In this document: piece after piece, positions 6,823-24,740 of the stretch
Layout of the letters: each line of letters begins with the position of its first letter
Position numbering within the stretch: the stretch's first letter is position 1
DNA from: Chloroflexia bacterium
Lineage (GTDB): Bacteria; Chloroflexota; Chloroflexia; QHBQ01; JAICKM01
DNA length: 64,000 nucleotides
NCBI GenBank assembly: GCA_050998805.1
Contig: JBPCPV010000029.1
Location: forward strand, 15,768 to 79,767
Direction: 5' to 3'
Notes under the pieces: generated by a model
What the model was told of the DNA's origin: nothing
Database searches by the model: none
The model's input: the letters and a program-made list of their open reading frames with translations, nothing else
Made by a program: the position numbers and the translations under genes

Positions 6823-9800
6823 TGCAAGTACTCGTGGACGAGGATGTCGCCGGAGCAACCATTCCTGCCGCCGAAACCGAGACCGAAACCGAGGCGGGCA
6901 CGCCCCTGACAATGTACGTCGTCAGCCACACTCACTGGGACCGCGAGTGGTATCTGCCATTCCAGCTTTTTCGGGCGAAGCTCGTCCGGCTGGTAGACAA
7001 GCTCCTCGCCATCCTCGACAGCGATCCCGACTTCGAGTATTTCACGCTCGATGGGCAGACGGTCGTGCTCGAAGACTACCTCGAAATCCGCCCTGAGCGC
7101 GCCGACGAGATCCGCGCCTATGTGGAGAGCGGACGTGTCCTCGTCGGCCCCTGGTACATCCTGCCCGACGAGTTCCTGGTGGACGGCGAGTCGATCATCC
7201 GCAACTTCCTGCGGGGGCGCGCCATAGCCGAGGACTTCGGCGCTTCGATGAACGTCGGCTACATCCCCGACCCGTTCGGCCACATCAGCCAGATGCCCCA
7301 GATATTGCGCGGCTTCGGGATCGACTGGGCCGTCTTCTGGCGCGGCATCGGCACCGACATCCCCGCCACCGAGTTCACCTGGGAAGCGCCCGACGGCAGC
7401 ATGGTGCTTGCCACCCGCCTGATCAGCGGCTACTCCAACGGCCTCCCGCTCTCATTCTCCCTCGCCGCCGCCCGCCGCCAGGTCGCCTGGCTCCGCGAGA
7501 CCCAGGTTCCGCTTTCCTCAACAAATGCCCTGCTTGTCCTCAACGGCGACGACCATATCCCGCCGAGCGAGCACCTCTCCACGATCCTGGCGACCCTCAA
7601 CACCGAGCTGGAGGGCAGCGGCGTCCGCCTCCTCCACACCACCATGCTGGCCTACCGCGAGGCGATCATCAGGGGCCTACAAGGCCGGACCCTGCCGAAC
7701 CACCTCGGCGAGTTCCGCGAGGCCGCCCACGCGAACCTCCTGCCGGGCGTACTTTCGACCCGCATCTGGATCAAGCAGGCGAACTACGCCGCCGAGACCC
7801 TCCTCGAACGCTGGGTCGAACCCTGGGAGGCGATGCTCTGGGCGCTCGCGGTCGCCCACGGCCCTGCCGACATGGACCAGGCGATCAGGATAGACTCGGC
7901 CGCACCCCTGCGCCAGACCGCCTGGAAGTACCTCCTCCAGAATCAGCCGCACGACAGCGTTTGCGGCTGCTCGGTGGACGCCGTGCATGACGAGATGCGG
8001 ACCCGGTACGCAGCCGTCGAGCAGATCGGCGGCGCGCTCCGCGACGAGTCCCTGGCCGGAGTCGCCGGTTTCGTGAATACCGCCGCCGCCGGGGCCGACG
8101 GCCGGCTGGCCGTCGTCGTCTACAACCCGCTCGGCAGCCCTCGCACCGACGTGGTGCAGGTGATTGTCGAATCCACCGCCAGCCTCCTCGGCTTCCGCCT
8201 GCTCGACGAGCGCGGCGAAGAAGTCCCCTACGAGGTGGTCGAGCGGCGCGCGCAGCAAGTCGCTTCCTTCGATCTCGAGCCTCCGGCGCTCGAGACCGCC
8301 CTCGCGATGGCGACCGATGGGCGGGTGATGGGCATGGCCGTGCTCGATGTCTTCATGCACCGCGCCGACGAAGCCGGGGTGATCGATGTTGACGTGACCG
8401 TGGCCGAGGCAGGCGAGCCGGATCTGCTTGCCGTGCAGACCGCCGCCGATGCCGCCCGCCGCCTCGTCTCTGCCGGGCAGGTGCGGATTTTCCGGCTGCG
8501 CGGGCACCACGCGGGGCAGCTTCTCGTCCGCTTTGTCGCCCACGACGTGCCCGGCCTCGGCTACCGCACCTACACCATCGCCCCCGCCTTCGCTGACCTC
8601 GCAGCCCCCCCCGAAACCGGCCTCGAGCAGAGCGCAGAAGAACCGCCTACGTCCATCCCTGCCGAGGCCGCGCCCCGCCCCTCCGCGCTATTCCAGCCGC
8701 AACCCCCGCTCAACCCCGAGCCGCCGGAGGCCACAGGCCCCGGCCCGCTCCACCCGGAGGTTGCCACAGTCGCATCCGCCGGCGCGCCCCAGGGTTATCT
8801 GATCGAAAACGAGTGGCTGCGTATACAGGTTGACGCCGACGGCTCTCTCAGCCTGAGCGACAAGCAGGCAGGGGTGATAGTGCGCCGTGGAAACATCTTC
8901 GTGGATACCGGCGACGCCGGCGACGAGTACAACTACAGCCCGCCGACCACTGACCAGGTGATCGAGGGCTTCGGCGGCCCGCCGCAGATCGAGGTTCGCC
9001 GCGACCACCTCGGCAGCATGATCGTGATCGAAGGCGAACTTGTGCTCCCAGCCTCGTTGAGCGAGGATCGCCTCGCTCGCAGCGCCGCCATCGTCCGATG
9101 TGCGGTCCGCTCCACAATACGCCTCTGGGACGGCGTTCGCCGCGCCGACATCACGACCACGGTTGACAACCTCGCCGCCGACCACCGCCTGCGCGTGCTG
9201 TTCGACGTGCCGGTGCAGACCGACCACTCCGACGCCGAGGGCAGCTTCGACGTGGTGCGCCGCCCCGCCGGTGTCTACCCAGGCAGCGAGGACTGGTTCG
9301 AGCCGCCGGTCCCGGAGTACCCGCAGAAGAGCTTCGTCGCCGTCGGCGACGGGCGGCGCGGCCTGCTGTTGGCTAACCGCGGCCTCCCCGAGTTCGAGGC
9401 CCGGACCGGCGGCGACGGCACGCTGCTCGCCCTCACCCTGCTCCGCTCGGTCGGCTGGCTCTCCCGCGAAGACCTGGCGGTACGCCCTGCCGGTCATGCA
9501 GGCCCCGGAGTGCCCTCGCCCGGCGGCCAGACCCCCGGCGTGCATACCTTCGAGTACTCGCTGGTGCCCTATGCCGGGGACTGGCTCGGTTCCGGCGCGT
9601 ACCGCCAGGCCCACAGCTTCGCGGTGCCACTGCACGCCGTTGCAGAGCAGCTTCACGACGGCCCTCTGCCCCAGACCGGCGCGTTGCTCGCCTGCGAGCC
9701 GCCTGAACTGATCCTCAGCGCCCTCAAGCGCAGCGAAGACGGCACCCGGCTGATCTTGCGCGCCTGGAACATCGCCGACCGCCCGCTCAGCGCCCGCATC

Positions 9801-16892: not shown

Positions 16893-17285
16893 TCAAACTT
16901 CGCGGGTGTACCAGTATGCCCAGGCGATCAGTACGAACTGGAGGGGGAGGCGCCCCCAGGCCGCCCAAACTGGGATGCCGGGCATGGCGGGGTGGTCGCC
17001 GCCGGCGGAGGTTGCGCCGTAGATGTTCGCGGGGAAGATGGCGATCAGCGTCAGGATCAGCGCCCAGGCCGCGAACCGCCGGGTGCGCGGGATCAGCAGC
17101 ATCGCCCCCAGGCTGCCCTCGATTGCTCCGCTGAGGTAGACTAGTTGGAGAGGCGCGGGCAGCATCGGCGGCATAAGCCGCACATAGGGTGTGCTGTCCG
17201 TGAAGTGCAATATCCCGCTTCCGATGAACAGAGCCGCCAGAGGCAGGACCAAGATAGCTTTAAGTCGTTTCATGGATCGCATCAC
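16893..17285 (-). CDS. DoxX-like small integral membrane protein
   Basis: four predicted TM helices, DoxX/DUF-like pattern; start uncertain (several Met). Confidence 0.45.
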   Translation of the reverse strand: MMRSMKRLKAILVLPLAALFIGSGILHFTDSTPYVRLMPPMLPAPLQLVYLSGAIEGSLGAMLLIPRTRRFAAWALILTLIAIFPANIYGATSAGGDHPAMPGIPVWAAWGRLPLQFVLIAWAYWYTREV

Positions 17286-18865
17286 TTGTTCAGCTCATAT
17301 CGCCACTCGAAGTAGTGTTGGCCGACGTTGCCCTGCTGAATGCGCCAGGTGGGGGCGAAGTCGGGGACGTAAGTGAGGACACGGCGCTGGTACGCCTGGA
17401 TCATCACAGAGAGGTCGCGCCCGCTCACGCGCATCTGGGTCCAATATCCCTCGGTGATCGGGTATCCCAGGACGTATGTCCAATCGAAGCCGTAGGTAGG
17501 CTGCATGTCCTGCAAGTAGTGCCAAAAGAGGTCGGGGATGTTGTGGCCGGTCTGGGTCACGAAGGCGGCGTAGTGGGAGAGACCGGAGTGGACTATGTCT
17601 GTGTAGACCCCGCCCCCAGTGTCGAGGGCATCGCTGACCGGCTGACCGACGCGGTTGGGTGCTTGGTGTTCGCCGTGCAGGCTGGCAACGCCGGCCAGGG
17701 AATTGTAATCGGGCGCGATCGGGTTGTCCTTTCGCGGGTCTCCGACCACGGGGAGTATGCATGGCACAGTCTCGTGGATCGAGGAGGTGTTGCCGGTCTG
17801 GATGTCGCCGCTGATCATCTCGACGGTCAGCAGGCCGTTAGTCACGTAGTATGGACTGTTCGGGTCGGCGCTTGGGTCGTTGACCTCCATGCGGGCCTTG
17901 TCGTAGTACTCCACATCGTGCCTGCCGCCCGGTCTCTGGGCATAAGCCTCGGCGGCACGGTACAGGAGGGTCGGACCCCAAAGCCAGGAGCGTGGGGCCG
18001 TTCCGGCGGCCACGGCCGCGTCGGCCTTCGACCAGACGCGCCCGAAGGCGGGGTCGGGGGCACCGAGCCAGACGAGGTGAATTAAATTCTTGCTGTATAG
18101 GTATTGGGGAGGAAGGGACTCATCCAGCACATAGACCAGTGCATCGCCGGATGTCGCCAACCTCTCTACACGCCCGTGACCCCCTGCTGGGACACGCAGA
18201 AGCACTTTCTCGGTGCTGCGGTCGGCTATCCTGAACGTACCCGCCAAGTCGGGGTCGGCTGCCGGCTCGACGGAGACATCGTAGGGGGAAGGCGGATCGG
18301 GCGCGAGGTCGCCGCCGGTCCAGGGGCCGCCATGGTTGGCAGCAGGGTCGAAGTAGCAGCGGTCGCAGGCTAGGGTGCCGCGCAGGAAGTACTCATATTG
18401 ACAGGGCGCTTGGGTCGGCTGGGTCCAAAGCAGACGAGGCCCGTTATGCGTGTCGCCGTTCGGGCAGTTGCAGGCGAACTCGAAACCATCGGCAGCGGGG
18501 GGATCTCCTCCGCAGCTGTCGTCCTCTGTAATCATCGCCATCTGGAGAGTTATCGTGCGCTGATCAATCAGGTTTTTGAGAGTGATCGTCCCGACTGGAG
18601 GCGCACAGTGCCCGCAGGCACTCACGAGCTTTGCGTAGGCGGCCCAATCTCCGCTCACCTGTAGCCAACTCACGGCAGAGACGAAGCTGACCTGGCCGGC
18701 GTCGTCAAGAGTGAGCGGGATGAAGGGCAAGGGAGCAGGTGCTTGAGCCGCGATGCGGGCGGCGACCGGCGCGCCCCCGCCGGGGAGCAGGCCGAGCGCA
18801 GCTACAAGCAGCAAGACAGCCGCAAAAAACAGTCGGGCGGTCGCAGGTGTGCGTCTCATTCCCAT
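17282..18865 (-). CDS. secreted Cys-rich protein with a C-terminal LGFP-like repeat domain (paralog of 53199-54350)
   Basis: signal peptide, C-terminal block RSWLWGP...YYDKARMEVNDP...FVTNGLL...LGYPITEGYW...IQAYQRRVLTYVP shared with the 53199-54350 protein. Confidence 0.5.
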   Translation of the reverse strand: MGMRRTPATARLFFAAVLLLVAALGLLPGGGAPVAARIAAQAPAPLPFIPLTLDDAGQVSFVSAVSWLQVSGDWAAYAKLVSACGHCAPPVGTITLKNLIDQRTITLQMAMITEDDSCGGDPPAADGFEFACNCPNGDTHNGPRLLWTQPTQAPCQYEYFLRGTLACDRCYFDPAANHGGPWTGGDLAPDPPSPYDVSVEPAADPDLAGTFRIADRSTEKVLLRVPAGGHGRVERLATSGDALVYVLDESLPPQYLYSKNLIHLVWLGAPDPAFGRVWSKADAAVAAGTAPRSWLWGPTLLYRAAEAYAQRPGGRHDVEYYDKARMEVNDPSADPNSPYYVTNGLLTVEMISGDIQTGNTSSIHETVPCILPVVGDPRKDNPIAPDYNSLAGVASLHGEHQAPNRVGQPVSDALDTGGGVYTDIVHSGLSHYAAFVTQTGHNIPDLFWHYLQDMQPTYGFDWTYVLGYPITEGYWTQMRVSGRDLSVMIQAYQRRVLTYVPDFAPTWRIQQGNVGQHYFEWRYELNK

Positions 18866-19857: not shown

Positions 19858-20019
19858 TCCGATAACAGTATAGAGTACGCTCCGGCTGAGTACAAGCCGC
19901 CATAGGGCACGAATCCCGCGCCTGTAAGACACGGCTCCGCCCGTGGACCCTGGCCGGGCCTGGTGCGTCTGTGGGAGAGCGGCTCTGCCCTCGATTGGTT
20001 CGCCCTACCTCGTTGCTCG

Positions 20020-20063
20020 CACTCCGCACCCGTCAATCCGCACTCCGCACTCCGCACTCCGCC
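20020..20063. repeat. heptanucleotide tandem repeats CGCACTC (about 5 units)
   Basis: cgcactccgcacccgtcaatccgcactccgcactccgcactccgcc immediately upstream of a TTGACA box and the tRNA-Sec candidate. Confidence 0.7.
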
Positions 20064-20123
20064 TTGACAGACCCCGGCCCGGTCAGTTATCCTAGATGCA
20101 CGCCGCGCCGCGAGGCGCAGCGG

Positions 20124-20218
20124 GGGGGTGGTTGGGTCCCGGTGGGCTCCGCAGTCTTCAAAACTGTCCGGGTGTCGCTAAGAACGGCATCGGTGGGTTC
20201 GACTCCCATGCACTCCCG
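20124..20218 (+). tRNA. selC: selenocysteine tRNA candidate (anticodon UCA), 95 nt
   Basis: hand-folded: 8-nt acceptor 20124-20131 pairs with 20210-20217 (7 of 8, one G-U); 6-bp D-stem with 4-nt loop (20134-20149); anticodon stem GCAGT/ACTGT with loop CTTCAAA (anticodon TCA 20158-20160); long variable arm (7-bp stem, 20171-20191); T-arm GTGGG-TTCGACT-CCCAT; discriminator G 20218. Confidence 0.6.
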
Positions 20219-20248
20219 CCCCCTAAGAACAATGCAAAGGACAAGAAA

Positions 20249-21016
20249 ATGAATGAGGAAGAAAAGCATTTCGACTATGAGGGGCTGGGCAAGAAACTGC
20301 TGGCATACTGCCGGAAGTATTCTATACCCCCGCAGCACATCTTCGATATCCTCAATGACCAAAAAGTGATCCCCATGCTGCGCGGCAAAGGGTTGGAATA
20401 CAGCCTTAGTCTAGTTCTACCTACAGTCCTCGATGCGGCTGCCTGGCAAGTAAACAAACTGAACCGCAATGCCCAGCCGGGCATACCAGACGAGGATCTC
20501 GAAGTTATTCACAAGCGCACTGGGATCCGGCTCGTGGTCGAGTCTAAAAGTGCAGTGCGCGGCTCAATGACGCTGGGCACTCGTTCTCGGACCCACAAAG
20601 TGCCTCACTTCAAGGTCAAATGCCATCGGAGCCGGAGCAACAAGAAGCTCGAAACAAATGACCGCTACGCGGAGACGGCTTTTGATGTGCTGGTGAGCAA
20701 TCCCACAAACGCTCTCTATGCTGGCGCAACAATCGGGGAAGAACTGGAGCTAATAGACGATGCTGCGCTTATCGAAGCACTCATGCAGTACTACAATGCA
20801 GCAGGTACGTCAACTCTAGTGGAAGCTGCTGCTGCTGATTGGCGCTTCGTGCTCCCGCCTCGAATTGCTGTGGACGGGTTCATCCCGCGGACACCGGTTG
20901 TTCTGCTGACCGGCGACCCGAACTGGCAACCGCTAAATCAGCTGGAAACCCAACTAACGGCAGTTGTACAGCAACAGGCTGATGCGCGACGGCGGCCGGG
21001 TCATAGCTCAAAATAA
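20249..21016 (+). CDS. putative type II restriction endonuclease (PD-(D/E)xK-like) partner of the Dam-family MTase
   Basis: 256 aa in a low-GC segment, convergent with and overlapping the MTase 3' end; candidate motif ...PDEDLEV...VVESK; no strong family match recognisable by eye. Confidence 0.4.
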   Translation: MNEEEKHFDYEGLGKKLLAYCRKYSIPPQHIFDILNDQKVIPMLRGKGLEYSLSLVLPTVLDAAAWQVNKLNRNAQPGIPDEDLEVIHKRTGIRLVVESKSAVRGSMTLGTRSRTHKVPHFKVKCHRSRSNKKLETNDRYAETAFDVLVSNPTNALYAGATIGEELELIDDAALIEALMQYYNAAGTSTLVEAAAADWRFVLPPRIAVDGFIPRTPVVLLTGDPNWQPLNQLETQLTAVVQQQADARRRPGHSSK

Positions 21017-21848
21017 ACACTTCCCGCCCCATGTAACGTTTGCCTCGGTCGGTCGTCTTTTTGGTCTGATCATCCGTCCGGTTGATCGTGTAGTTCCACT
21101 CTTTGTCCAGCATGGCCGCCGCCCACTGATACAAGGCGCGGACTTCGGGGCTGTTGTCATACGTAAGCAGGAAGGAGAGGCGGTGGCTGTGCGTGTGCAA
21201 AACCTCAGCCAGACGCAGATGATCTGCGCGTGTGAAGCTGTAAGTGTAAAACTTGTCCTGATCCGCATTAAAGTAGGGCGGGTCTACGAACAAGAACGCT
21301 CCGTCAGGAGCCTGCTCGATGGTTTGGGCGAAATCCGCACAGGTGATCTGCACATCCTGTAACTTGGCCGAGCAGCGCCGTAGATGACCCGGCCAATTCT
21401 TCGGCTGCATACTGTAAATGTCACCATACCCCCAATAGCAGTTAGGCGCGTTCATAATCCCCGAATAGCTGGTCCGGTTAAGATAGTACCACCGAAAGGC
21501 GCGTTCAAGTTCGTTCGTCGGCCTATACACATTCTTGTAGTAAGTATGATTTTCTTTACTGGCCCCGATCCCATCCAGCAAGGCAATCAATTCCTCCACA
21601 TGATCCCTTATGTGGATATAGCAATTGACGAGTTCGGGATCTGCGTCGTTTAGGAGGTTTGTTGCAGCCTTGCTTTTGGCGAAAAAGATCGAACCGCCCC
21701 CGGCAAATGGCTCTGCATAGTAGCTGTGCGGAATCATTTGCTCCAAAATTAGCTTACGAGCGTAGAACTTACCGCCCGCGTAGCGAAACGGCGAATTGAT
21801 AGGCACCCTATCAACGGTTGCTCCCTTAGGCTGGGTTCCGATCGGCAT
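20880..21848 (-). CDS. Dam-family (D12 class) N6-adenine DNA methyltransferase
   Basis: FRYAGGK, EPFAGGGS (SAM binding) and DPPY catalytic motif; the GC-rich C-terminal ~40 codons are probably read-through past the real C-terminus. Confidence 0.8.
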   Translation of the reverse strand: MPIGTQPKGATVDRVPINSPFRYAGGKFYARKLILEQMIPHSYYAEPFAGGGSIFFAKSKAATNLLNDADPELVNCYIHIRDHVEELIALLDGIGASKENHTYYKNVYRPTNELERAFRWYYLNRTSYSGIMNAPNCYWGYGDIYSMQPKNWPGHLRRCSAKLQDVQITCADFAQTIEQAPDGAFLFVDPPYFNADQDKFYTYSFTRADHLRLAEVLHTHSHRLSFLLTYDNSPEVRALYQWAAAMLDKEWNYTINRTDDQTKKTTDRGKRYMGREVFILSYDPAAVAHQPVAVQLPLVGFPADLAVASSGRRSAEQPVSAG

Positions 21849-21871
21849 CGTTGTGTACTCCCGGACGATCT

Positions 21872-22135
21872 TTAGCGTTGAGTACTTGTAGCGTTAGCAG
21901 GCTCGATTACCTCGCCCAAACTGTAAACTGGGCTAAGTTCCTTTAGCACGGAAGCAAAATCCTGGCGCTGTGTCTCGTTATTGAGCAACTCTATGAAGTC
22001 CTCGAAACTCAGCACAACAGCCTGCGGTGTGCCGCGCCGTTTGACAATGTAGCGCGTGCGCGTACGCACCACATCATCGAGGACCTGCCCGAAGTTGTTC
22101 TGTGCATCAGTTGAGCTGACAGTCTTGGTAGCCAT
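21872..22135 (-). CDS. Phd/YefM-family antitoxin-like protein (orphan, no toxin gene adjacent)
   Basis: 87 aa; TDAQNNFGQVLDDVV...IVKRRGTPQAVVLSFEDFIELLN matches the YefM/Phd pattern; sits directly upstream of the MTase. Confidence 0.65.
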   Translation of the reverse strand: MATKTVSSTDAQNNFGQVLDDVVRTRTRYIVKRRGTPQAVVLSFEDFIELLNNETQRQDFASVLKELSPVYSLGEVIEPANATSTQR

Positions 22136-22225
22136 CCATCTTATCCAATCTAGCTAACTTAGCTATATTATAGCAGACGTTAGGCGTTCTGTCAATACCT
22201 TTCTCCCGGCAAAACAGCTCGCCCT

Positions 22226-23773
22226 CTACTTGTGTACCGGCGTGAAGAGGTCGGCCAGCCGGTGCGCTGTGAGATTTCTCCCTTCCGACACGATCAGCCA
22301 ATCACCGGCGATTGCCACTCTCCTATAGCCGCCAGCCCTCGGTCCTAACAGCCGCATCGGAATGCGATCAGTCAGTTTCATTCCCCAGACTTCTCCATTG
22401 AGACCCCCAGCGTAAGCCGTCCAAACGACGGTGTTACCACGGATCGCTGCGCTGGATCCCTTCCCGCCGGGCAGAGGCGTTGTAGCCCCGGTGTCGAGGT
22501 TGATGAGCAGAGTAGGGTTGGGAGAGTCAGCCCACACCAAATAATGGCCCGAGAGTATGGAAGACCCGAAAAGAGCGCACTGGCCTGTCGTTTGCTGCGC
22601 GGCGGTTTGTACCTGGCCGGTCGAGCGCCTTAGGTAATGGAGGTCGCAATCCAGTCCAGCACCGTATTCAGTCCAGGCAAAGTATTCATCACTGACAGCA
22701 ATGCCGTATCCAGCTGGCCGAGCAGAAGCGACGACGCTGGTCGTATTGGTATCAAGGTCTTTCATAACCAAGCGGGTATTTGGTCCGCTGTCCTCAAACC
22801 ACGCGACGGTTCTGCCGACGATAGTAGGGGCGAAATCCCCCAAAGCGATGGTGAAGGTAATCCCGGTGTCGAGGTCTTCCCCCAGGACGGCACCATTTCC
22901 ATCTGCCCAGACGATTGTAGAGCCTGAAACCGAGTAAGAGAGATATACAACCGACCGGTTAGCAGCTATGGGTTTGGTGTGCTGGCTATTACGAACGTCT
23001 ACAGCGTAGAGTTTCTCATTCGGATGCTCGCTGTATGGAGAGTCTTCTATCCAAGCCAAATAGGTGTTCGACCCGACAGGCCCGCCCTGTGCCAGCCCCT
23101 GTTCCGCCGGCGGCGGAAGCGTCACCGTGCCGTAGCGTGTGCGCTGCTGGTACGTGCCGAGCTGGGTCAGCAGCACTTCGTATGGCGTGCCGGCGTTTTC
23201 GGGGTGTAGCTCGAACGCGGCGCGCTCGAAATATTGTACGGTGTAGGGCTTGTTGTCGAGGTCGCTGACCTCGGTGAACTCATCGGAGATCGGGTAGCCC
23301 TGCTGGGCGAGTCCGCCGTGAGCCTCCCAGTAGCGCCGGAAGAAGCCGCCGACGGTGTGGCCAGTCTGTGGGAAGTAGCGCGGTGCCTCGGACGATGCGT
23401 GCTGGTCGGGAGCGCCGTCGGGACCGTAGTACTCTCGGTAGCGGTAGTCGCCAAGCAGCGACGGCAGTACCTCGAACGGGGTGCCTGCGTTCTCAGGGTG
23501 GGATTCGAGGACGGCGCGCTCGAAGTACTGGACGGTGTAAGGCTGTCCGTCAGTATCCGAGGTTTCGATGAGGGGGTCGCTGATGGGGTAGCCGAGTTGG
23601 GTGAGGCCGCCGTGGGACTGCCAGAAGGAGAGGAAGCTGCCTGAGACTGTGTGGCCGGTTTCGGGGAAGGTGCGGGAGGCAGGTTGGGCCGTAGCCGGAG
23701 GGACCGAGGCCGGTGGGAGCGCCAACAGCGCGAGCAGCAGCAACGTTCTCGTACGGCCAAAGCAAAGAGCCAT
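22226..23773 (-). CDS. secreted protein with two LGFP-like repeats and a C-terminal beta-propeller-like repeat region
   Basis: signal peptide MALCFGRTRTLLLLALLAL (RBS aaggagg); duplicated ~70-aa unit ...FWQSHGGLTQLGYPISD...YTVQYFERAVLE...; start set at the signal-peptide Met rather than the longer track ORF. Confidence 0.5.
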   Translation of the reverse strand: MALCFGRTRTLLLLALLALPPASVPPATAQPASRTFPETGHTVSGSFLSFWQSHGGLTQLGYPISDPLIETSDTDGQPYTVQYFERAVLESHPENAGTPFEVLPSLLGDYRYREYYGPDGAPDQHASSEAPRYFPQTGHTVGGFFRRYWEAHGGLAQQGYPISDEFTEVSDLDNKPYTVQYFERAAFELHPENAGTPYEVLLTQLGTYQQRTRYGTVTLPPPAEQGLAQGGPVGSNTYLAWIEDSPYSEHPNEKLYAVDVRNSQHTKPIAANRSVVYLSYSVSGSTIVWADGNGAVLGEDLDTGITFTIALGDFAPTIVGRTVAWFEDSGPNTRLVMKDLDTNTTSVVASARPAGYGIAVSDEYFAWTEYGAGLDCDLHYLRRSTGQVQTAAQQTTGQCALFGSSILSGHYLVWADSPNPTLLINLDTGATTPLPGGKGSSAAIRGNTVVWTAYAGGLNGEVWGMKLTDRIPMRLLGPRAGGYRRVAIAGDWLIVSEGRNLTAHRLADLFTPVHK

Positions 23774-23825
23774 ATCCAACCGAGGGCCTCCTTGCCTAAT
23801 AATACCCCCATAGCCGCACGCGGGT

Positions 23826-24740
23826 TCACAGCCCCGCGAACAGATCGCGCTCCCGCTTGCGTCCAGACGGCGGCAGGGCACGGGTGAACTGCTCGCGGCC
23901 CATCAGCAGGCGGCGCATCGGGCGCGGCAGCCGCATCAACCCCGCCATGCCCCCCAACTGGCTCGCGTGACAGAGGCGAGCGCGGTCCATCTGCTCGGTC
24001 CACGCGCCGCAGGCGACGACCGCCGTCACCGGCGTCGCCTCCTCCACCACGCGCACGAGGTCCACATCTGCGTTCTCTCCGAACCGTCGCGGGTCGCGCC
24101 TCAGCAGGCGCATCATGGCGACTGAGAGCCGAAGGAAGCCTGTGCCGAGCGTCGAGTAGTAGAGCTTGGCTGGTCGCCAGGGGGATAGTCCGGCGGCGAT
24201 CTGTTCGGGATAGAGCACGGGGTCTGCGGCGGCGTCGAAGGCCGGGCCGACAGCCTGGTGGATATAGATGTGGTCCGGGTGGCCGTAGCCGCCGTATGGA
24301 GGGAAGGTGAGCACGACCTGCGGCCGCAGCGCGCGTATCAGCGCGACCACCTGCCCCGTGACCTGCCGGAGAGGTGCCTGCACCAGCGCGGCAGGGTTGG
24401 CGTTGTCGGGAGAACCCGGCATGCCCGAGTCGCGGTAGCCGAGGTAATGCACCGCCCGCAGCCCTAGCGCCCGCGCCGCGCAGTCCAGCTCCGCCGTCCG
24501 CAGCGCGCCTATGTCGGCATGGCCTTCGAGGAAGCCGGGTGCCACGGTGCCGCACTCGCCGCGTGTGGCGCAAGCGTAATGCACGTCCACGCCCTCCGCC
24601 GCATAGCGGGCGATGGTCCCCGCGTTGCCGAAGCTCTCGTCGTCAGGGTGCGCGTACACGACGAGCAGCCTCAGCTCCGCTGCCGGTTCGCCGAACCAAT
24701 GCGATTCGATGCCGTACTCTGAGAAGTCGGGTCTGTTCAT
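23826..24740 (-). CDS. PIG-L/LmbE-family N-acetylglucosaminyl deacetylase
   Basis: VVYAHPDDESFG and HPDH motifs of the PIG-L family. Confidence 0.75.
   Translation of the reverse strand: MNRPDFSEYGIESHWFGEPAAELRLLVVYAHPDDESFGNAGTIARYAAEGVDVHYACATRGECGTVAPGFLEGHADIGALRTAELDCAARALGLRAVHYLGYRDSGMPGSPDNANPAALVQAPLRQVTGQVVALIRALRPQVVLTFPPYGGYGHPDHIYIHQAVGPAFDAAADPVLYPEQIAAGLSPWRPAKLYYSTLGTGFLRLSVAMMRLLRRDPRRFGENADVDLVRVVEEATPVTAVVACGAWTEQMDRARLCHASQLGGMAGLMRLPRPMRRLLMGREQFTRALPPSGRKRERDLFAGL

Follow-up and report, generated by a model that had tools for sequence, protein, structure and literature searches.

What can a gene of the Phd/YefM antitoxin family be doing where no toxin gene accompanies it? 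The question is raised by a low-GC islet in contig JBPCPV010000029.1 of a Chloroflexia bacterium, of which a stretch of 64,000 nucleotides (hereafter the window) was analyzed. Directly 3′ of a gene for tRNA-Sec, the islet carries three genes: a putative restriction endonuclease (REase) gene (R), a DNA methyltransferase (MTase) gene (M) convergent with it and, in front of M, a small gene for a Phd/YefM-like protein (phd), which an earlier note on this DNA had described as an orphan antitoxin. It appears probable to us that the whole is a native tRNA-Sec gene followed by a horizontally acquired 2-kb Type II restriction–modification (R-M) cassette with a controller of the Phd type. Most likely, the Phd-like protein would be this controller, with the fold of an antitoxin and acting as repressor of the operon that encodes it.

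The Phd-like protein and the genes next to it

The Phd-like protein (87 amino acids; 21872–22135, − strand) is encoded at the head of the phd-M operon, where 23 nt separate the end of phd from the start of the MTase gene. It matches PF02604 (3e-12) and also TIGR01552. Its AlphaFold2 (AF2) model superposes on the DNA-binding domains of Phd/YefM proteins, operator-bound Phd (4ZM0/4ZM2) among them, at 1.4–1.7 Å over ~48 residues. NCBI lists an identical protein, from a Chloroflexia metagenome-assembled genome (MAG), under the name "Phd/YefM family antitoxin".

A search with this protein gives 106 clusters (at 90% identity), none of which is less than 46% identical to it. The subfamily is characterized by the signature S-T-x-A-Q-N-N-F-G-x-V-L-D-D ... 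T-R-Y-I-V-K-R-R-G ... E-L-x-P-x-Y-x-L-G-E. When 1.84 billion representative proteins are searched with a profile, ~43 members (at 50% identity) occur with E-values up to 1e-10, after which ordinary Phd/YefM proteins follow. The subfamily occurs in environmental, mostly Chloroflexota-type, genomes; we did not observe relatives in plasmids (tblastn) or in viral contigs. Phd–MTase fusion proteins were also considered as a further line of evidence and set aside, the long matches being fusions to unrelated domains.

The genomic context could be read in 11 clusters of Phd homologs, from 100% down to 48% identity and in at least eight genomic contexts. In all 11, the gene immediately 3′, on the same strand and at a distance of −14 to +56 nt, encodes a DNA MTase, and neither there nor in the window is a classical toxin gene (Doc, YoeB, RelE, or ParE type) found next to the phd homolog. 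The MTase is of the D12 class in the clade of the window and an N6_N4 enzyme, of 206 to 526 amino acids, elsewhere. The convergent genes vary as well, and at least four unrelated types of R-M system are represented. The window and loci L125 and L216 have the D12-class MTase, with a convergent gene of the same PD-(D/E)xK family as that of the window (the L216 contig ends before the convergent gene). An Eco29kI-type endonuclease (RE_Eco29kI; PADLOC REase_II, 5e-75) is convergent with an N6_N4 MTase of 454–457 amino acids in L221 and L232, and an XcyI-type endonuclease (RE_XcyI) with one of 463 amino acids in L235. The convergent partner is an unknown open reading frame (ORF) in L215 (223 amino acids; N6_N4 MTase of 206) and in L228–230 (271–273 amino acids; N6_N4 MTase of 438). 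For L219 (N6_N4 MTase of 526 amino acids), no convergent gene is called; the contig of L224 (MTase of 507 amino acids) ends before it; and L231 has a split copy of the MTase with a remnant of the convergent gene.

Two further observations concern these loci. L230 contains, at 6924–7252, a second and truncated phd-like copy directly before a second N6_N4 MTase gene. L228 and L229 are near-identical, and the 273-residue convergent ORF beside the phd-M operon is present in one of them only, which suggests that the endonuclease was lost while regulator and MTase were kept.

The same three genes are found in a second genomic context (L125–127), so that phd has been inherited together with R and M. 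Between the window and L125, the ratio of nonsynonymous to synonymous divergence (dN/dS, with dS ~0.85) is 0.165 for R, 0.094 for M, and 0.082 for the Phd-like protein; in the N-terminal DNA-binding domain of the latter, it falls to 0.03. Purifying selection on phd is thus strong.

Promoter and candidate operator

The phd-M operon is preceded by a promoter TTGACA-17-TATAAT (22167–22195, − strand), with 12 of 12 matches to the consensus and TG before TATAAT. Directly downstream, adjoining the −10 box, there is a perfect palindrome TAGCTAA-N-TTAGCTA with N = G (22151–22165), unique in the window, which we take as the candidate operator. From the −10 box to the start of phd, the window and L125 present three differences. 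The leader of ~40 nt around the palindrome is identical in both, at ~50% divergence of the synonymous sites (dS ~0.86).

Upstream of phd, each of the 12 loci examined has a TTGACA −35 box, in most cases with a −10-like hexamer ~17 nt later. At the same position, a palindrome or quasi-palindrome of TTAGC(T/C)A half-sites occurs in at least eight of these 12 loci (e.g., CATATTAGCTAATATG, TGGCTAAACTAGCCA, and GGTTAGCCAACTTAGCTAAGCTAGC), three of the 12 belonging to the near-identical clade of the window, L125, and L216. Exact TTAGC(T/C)A half-sites were not found upstream of phd in L215 and L221. The arrangement of promoter, candidate operator, and phd is the signature of a putative portable, self-repressing module, joined to different MTases. 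Such a module would be shared among otherwise unrelated R-M systems, with the Phd-like protein predicted to bind the palindrome and to repress.

The convergent endonuclease and methyltransferase

The ORF at 20249–21016 (+ strand; 255 amino acids) had been proposed, from a PD-(D/E)xK-like motif and its 3′ overlap with the convergent MTase gene, to be the cognate REase, and this assignment is supported. The ORF matches PADLOC REase_II at 3.6e-19; it has no match in Pfam or NCBIfam and no sequence match to solved structures (PDB). None of its 421 homologs is named. Across 41 aligned homologs, D81, D83, E98, and K100 are invariant, in the arrangement D81/D83...E98-x-K100, and the predicted model has the PD-(D/E)xK fold of a Type II restriction endonuclease.

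Metagenome loci encoding a relative of the REase contain a convergent homolog of the window MTase in ~76 of 80 cases, that is, in every locus long enough. In 57 of 79 loci of the REase family, the 3′ ends of R and M overlap, by a median of 17 nt; in the window, the overlap between the two frames is 137 nt (20880–21016), and synonymous divergence is lower within it. On account of the conserved convergent MTase partner, the 3′ overlaps, and the PD-(D/E)xK fold and motif, R and M, as far as sequences can tell, are a genuine two-enzyme Type II system.

The MTase (20880–21848, − strand; 322 amino acids) belongs to the D12/Dam (alpha) class of DNA amino-methyltransferases, with matches to PF02086 (3e-33), TIGR00571 (4e-37), and PADLOC MTase_II (1.8e-79) and with the motifs FAGGGS and DPPY. 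Its nearest solved chains are M.CbeI of Caldicellulosiruptor bescii (7M6B; 1.5e-23), then DpnM (1.9e-18) and Dam, which have the same alpha-class D12 architecture and the DPPY motif and are the best matches among solved structures. The window MTase is only distantly related to them. According to its depositors, M.CbeI is an alpha-class N4-cytosine MTase with that same DPPY motif (PMC8616854), whereas DpnM and Dam methylate N6 of adenine. Since the bases differ, neither the base modified by the window MTase nor its target site can be read from membership in the family. Of the earlier description as a Dam-family N6-adenine MTase, the family holds and the base is uncertain: with an N4-cytosine enzyme as the nearest solved relative, "N6-adenine" is here a family name only. 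The PDB entry 7M6B is still titled adenine-specific, M.CbeI being reported as an N4-cytosine enzyme.

Counts of palindromes, made for the DNA of the host and for 54 cassettes taken together, reveal only generic avoidance signals (CTAG, GGCC, and CATG); GATC is not avoided, and no recognition site can be named from them. Among the 80 loci of the REase family, there is no conserved small regulator upstream of M: phd is present only in the clade of the window, and a single locus (L201) has a helix-turn-helix (HTH)-like ORF at that place.

The tRNA-Sec gene

The element upstream of R had been folded by hand into a candidate tRNA-Sec (selC). ARAGORN and the Rfam model RF01852, both run on the window, agree with that call and place the gene, with anticodon UCA, at 20124–20220 (+ strand). 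The tRNA-SeC (tca) is the only ARAGORN call in the whole window; RF01852 matches 20124–20217 with 62.4 bits (gathering score 47; E 2.7e-10), the full model being covered, and no other Rfam family reaches threshold anywhere in the window. The alignment to RF01852 displays the features claimed before: a 6-bp D stem with a 4-nt loop, the UCA anticodon in a CUUCAAA loop, a long variable arm, and a G discriminator. In an 8/5 reading, the acceptor would have seven standard pairs and then a G.G mismatch at the eighth position, where the RF01852 model places a gap. The same G.G is present in the nearest relatives (L084, L079, and L091).

The gene has a promoter TTGACA-18-TATCCT at 20064–20093 (+ strand; 10 of 12 matches in the consensus scan), and the layout is the same in those three relatives. 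That selA, selB, and selD are absent from the window also holds: tblastn with the E. coli SelA, SelB, and SelD proteins gives a best E-value of 0.43 over the 64 kb, and in the positive control all three proteins are matched in L011, L021, and L063. These three are the only ones of the 120 Chloroflexota tRNA-Sec loci (L001–L120) with homologs of selA, selB, and selD together within the 8 kb fetched. In the same set, gyrB and an M50 peptidase gene are recurrent downstream neighbors of tRNA-Sec.

Just upstream of the tRNA-Sec promoter, at 20018–20059, a short CGCACTC tandem occurs in about four copies. It coincides with the ends of contigs in Logan, where two independent contigs (L121 and L122) end at positions 20033 and 20052 of the window. 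A Joint Genome Institute (JGI) contig, L123, contains an identical tRNA-Sec and islet (99.87% over window positions 20100–23206); its positions 1–89, upstream of the point corresponding to 20100, contain a different tRNA-Sec promoter and leader, TTGACA-17-TATGCT, like those of L084 and L079. The identical cassette is present in the samples SRR33880238, SRR31090145, and JGI 3300009400. Either strains may differ in the left flank of tRNA-Sec, or the contigs may be broken or chimeric at this point.

Borders of the islet and its arrival

The fall in GC 3′ of tRNA-Sec, described in the earlier note, is found also when computed in windows. GC is ~0.63–0.67 before 20100 and 0.48–0.58 directly after tRNA-Sec; for the islet (20250–22200), it is 0.527, against 0.651 ± 0.033 for all 2-kb segments, which makes it the lowest 2 kb of the window. 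Low GC continues ~850 nt beyond the end proposed before, to ~23050, inside the ORF at 22226–23881 (− strand; ACR2M0_09130 at NCBI, hypothetical). In the 3′ half of this flanking gene (22226–23053), GC at third codon positions (GC3) is 0.60 and islet-like, versus 0.78 in the 5′ half. That 3′ half lies outside the DNA common to L125, and it is uncertain whether it is part of the imported DNA.

The borders of the cassette can be drawn from two sets of relatives. On the left, tRNA-Sec and its promoter align with three Chloroflexia MAGs (L091, L084, and L079), and the similarity ends ~6 nt after the tRNA. In L125–127, the three genes of the cassette are present in the same arrangement, with 82% nucleotide identity over window positions 20306–22202, and the neighbors differ from those of the window (HTH_31 and DUF72 genes, with no tRNA nearby). 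On the right, identity to L125–127 is lost a few bases before the −35 box of phd. The comparison delimits a mobile unit at ~20221–22205, which comprises R, M, phd, and the phd promoter and candidate operator. Its GC is ~50%–53% in both high-GC hosts.

How did this unit arrive next to tRNA-Sec? The earlier note had invoked selC as an integration hotspot. What stands of this is the position, the foreign DNA beginning within ~6 nt of the 3′ end of tRNA-Sec. A genomic island of the selC type, inserted at that 3′ end by an integrase and surviving as the present islet, would account for it, and possible traces of comparable events occur elsewhere. In two of the 120 Chloroflexota loci, the 3′ end of tRNA-Sec is duplicated: in L050 (5611–6790) and L004 (97–1901), the 3′ part recurs 1142 and 1776 nt downstream, respectively, with repeats that are exact over 38–39 nt (longer if imperfect matches are allowed) and that enclose islets of 1.1–1.8 kb. 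The L050 pair flanks cargo of the toxin–antitoxin type, a nucleotidyltransferase/HEPN pair, after which come another nucleotidyltransferase gene and a canonical Phd-YoeB pair. A drop in GC after tRNA-Sec is present in ~8 of 77 scorable Chloroflexota loci. The islet itself, however, has no integrase in it or beside it (17–26 kb around the site; ORF and family scans), the tRNA 3′ end is not found again downstream within three mismatches, and local alignment scores no higher than with shuffled sequences. In addition, ~98 other Chloroflexota loci have mainly housekeeping genes in the 3 kb that follow tRNA-Sec (141 ORFs), with no integrase family among the 25 commonest, and the same cassette lies in L125–127 with no tRNA nearby. 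An island of this type is, in our estimate, a rather improbable origin. Since duplicated 3′ ends are restricted to L004 and L050 and integrases are uncommon downstream, tRNA-Sec is, at the loci compared, an occasional and not a general insertion target in Chloroflexota.

Homologous recombination from a lower-GC relative, anchored on the left in the conserved tRNA-Sec and on the right in the gene at 22226–23881, would require neither integrase nor att site. The 29 nt at the 3′ end of tRNA-Sec are identical in at least 120 Chloroflexota genome contigs and offer a ready block of homology. The GC3 of the flanking gene, islet-like through the 3′ half and host-like thereafter, agrees with an exchange ending within that gene, and in L123 the same tRNA and islet are joined to another tRNA-Sec promoter and leader, with a breakpoint 24 nt 5′ of the tRNA. 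Yet neither a donor nor an empty site was found among the 120 Chloroflexota tRNA-Sec loci, none of which has the flanking genes of the window or presents an insertion-free allele. The best non-self homolog of ACR2M0_09130 is 48% identical, too distant for a comparison of mosaicism, and L123 is a metagenome contig of 3.2 kb that differs over 89 nt only and may be chimeric. We mention recombination as a tentative explanation, possible but short of an expectation.

The flanking gene deserves a remark on its own account. ACR2M0_09130 contains two internal repeats of 294 nt (23149–23674) and is a member of a large paralog family of Chloroflexia. With the ORF at 17282–18865 (− strand), it flanks the region of BirA, tRNA-Sec, and the islet; both are large, secreted-looking proteins without a Pfam domain, and a repeat motif (...GYPIS/T...YFERA...) is common to the two.

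Proposed working of the cassette

The cassette would be expressed from two units. The ATG of the REase gene is 28 nt after tRNA-Sec. A consensus scan of the sigma-70 type detects a single promoter-like site upstream of this gene, that of tRNA-Sec, and none belonging to R itself; a terminator in front of R is lacking as well. No stable hairpin follows the tRNA of the window (z −0.2), whereas L091 has there a 13-bp GC hairpin (z −4.2). Since promoter, hairpin, and terminator are all lacking in front of R, the REase would probably be made from a tRNA-Sec read-through transcript, out of which tRNA processing would release its message.

The second unit would consist of phd and then the MTase gene, behind the perfect consensus promoter and the palindrome directly after it. 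By binding to the palindrome, a dimer of the Phd-like protein would act as repressor of the phd-M operon. After entry into a naive cell, the strong promoter would at first be free of repressor and would give an early burst of MTase. Transcription of phd-M would at the same time run head-on into the REase gene and interfere with its transcription, as can be expected from the overlapping 3′ ends and the lack of a terminator between R and M. With accumulation of the repressor, the MTase would drop to a maintenance level and the interference with R would be relieved.

Several points weigh against this scheme. A second operator near the REase gene of the window, or an operator-like site upstream of the R genes of the other loci, was not found, so that an effect of the Phd-like protein on R would be indirect. 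Read-through into R is suggested purely by elimination, from the lack of alternatives in the sigma-70-type consensus scan. In L125, R is preceded (at 766–1267) by a gene for an HTH_31/HTH_3 protein of 98 amino acids and by four direct repeats GGGACAATAAC[T/C][G/A]TG, ~30 nt apart, which may represent a conventional controller (C) protein with its boxes. Gene and repeats are absent from the cassette of the window, which may thus have lost a second regulator, with the REase poorly expressed or silent. The linkage of phd to MTases is read from only 11 clusters with readable context, some of them from related genomes. Finally, in the C-terminal tail of the subfamily, P69, Y71, and G74 are invariant although the tail is disordered in the predicted model. 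It looks like a partner-binding peptide, and control may not be purely transcriptional.

This last point leads to a different role for the protein. The Phd-like protein could act post-translationally, its disordered tail binding the MTase (which occupies the slot of the toxin) or the REase and either neutralizing that partner or using it as a co-repressor, instead of acting only as a DNA-binding repressor. The gene order, phd followed after a short gap by the next gene, does mirror that of antitoxin–toxin operons, and the segment E-L-x-P-x-Y-x-L-G-E is invariant or nearly so and yet predicted to be disordered, like the toxin-binding tails of Phd and YefM. But the endonucleases of these systems have unrelated folds (PD-(D/E)xK, Eco29kI type, and XcyI type), the MTases differ in class and size, and it is hard to picture a single tail motif binding all of them; moreover, it is the DNA-binding domain (dN/dS 0.03) and the operator that are most strongly constrained. 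We find this role unlikely. A mixed form, to which we would give no better prospects, is that a Phd/YefM lineage was captured as a portable promoter–operator–repressor module in which the tail binds the MTase as co-repressor, conditional cooperativity, of the kind by which toxin–antitoxin operons are tuned, then serving to sense the MTase level. As for the orphan antitoxin of the earlier note, a decaying toxin–antitoxin remnant left by chance beside an R-M system, it could appeal to the lack of an adjacent toxin gene and to the NCBI label, which is simply that of a Phd/YefM family antitoxin. The data above already contradict it, with a dN/dS of 0.08 at a dS of 0.86, inheritance with R and M in a second context, a MTase as the next gene in 11 of 11 clusters, and a conserved promoter and operator; we attach hardly any credence to it. 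A Phd-type repressor of the phd-M operon is the reading that we retain.

Significance

The tRNA-Sec, the D12 MTase, and the PD-(D/E)xK endonuclease are further members of known families, and tRNA-Sec with an R-M islet would by itself be ordinary. The Phd-type regulator is a variant of the R-M controller idea and is new within the literature searched (open-access papers and preprints). How the endonuclease is delayed in most convergent Type II systems that lack a helix-turn-helix C protein is still an open question. If the proposal is true, there would be a second, structurally unrelated class of cassette-borne R-M regulators, which would be a new solution to that delay, and R-M and toxin–antitoxin systems would share homologous regulatory parts, beyond an analogous logic.

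For annotation, it would be a mistake to count genes labeled "Phd/YefM family antitoxin" that stand before a MTase gene among the orphan antitoxins. Several convergent partners of phd-M lack a family assignment, and such genes can therefore also point to endonucleases that are still unannotated. With 106 clusters at 90% identity, the subfamily is small, and the finding would have a limited reach unless other antitoxin folds play the same role.

Comparison with known systems

The layout at the left border has a parallel in the thrU-tyrU-glyT-thrT-tufB operon of E. coli, a tRNA–mRNA co-transcript in which a protein gene comes directly after a tRNA gene with neither promoter nor terminator between them. 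In the window, the arrangement was made by the insertion of foreign DNA, and co-transcription would follow from the read-through suggested above. The islet is also comparable to the selC islands of Enterobacteria (LEE, SHI-2, and others), where foreign DNA of deviant composition again lies directly 3′ of tRNA-Sec. Those islands are, however, tens of kilobases long, whereas the present islet is 2 kb, with a single defense cassette and without integrase or direct repeats.

The closest functional likeness is with the C proteins of R-M systems (C.PvuII, C.Esp1396I, C.Kpn2I, and C.AhdI). Like the Phd-like protein as predicted here, they are small DNA-binding regulators inside R-M cassettes, co-transcribed with an enzyme gene, with a palindromic operator at their own promoter; they accompany many unrelated families of R and M, and a role in timing MTase versus endonuclease upon entry into a new host is proposed for both. 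C.Esp1396I and C.Kpn2I act also on the M side (PMC3488213, PMC6237814). The differences are in fold and in position. C proteins have an Xre-type helix-turn-helix, whereas the Phd-like protein has the Phd/YefM fold (beta-alpha-alpha-beta-beta-alpha); its gene always stands before M and never before R, and, unlike in C-protein systems, no C-box-like sites occur at R. Reviews of R-M regulation (PMC3874152, PMC12707154) and a census of C proteins (PMC2632904) treat helix-turn-helix C proteins, repressors fused to MTases, and antisense RNAs. Neither in these nor in a census of toxin–antitoxin systems (PMC2701414) or in NetFlax (PMC10440598) is there a Phd/YefM-type R-M regulator or a Phd–MTase pair. 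Nor was such a regulator reported in the open-access papers and preprints searched, where absence is not proof.

In its build, the Phd-like protein is close to the antitoxins of Phd-Doc and YefM-YoeB. They have in common the Pfam family, the fold, the first place in a two-gene operon, a palindrome overlapping the promoter, and a disordered C-terminal tail. The antitoxins are followed by Doc, YoeB, or RelE, whereas the Phd-like protein, which belongs to a subfamily with a distinct signature, is followed by a DNA methyltransferase. The subfamily would thus work like a C protein and be built like an antitoxin, with neither the fold of the one nor the toxin partner of the other.

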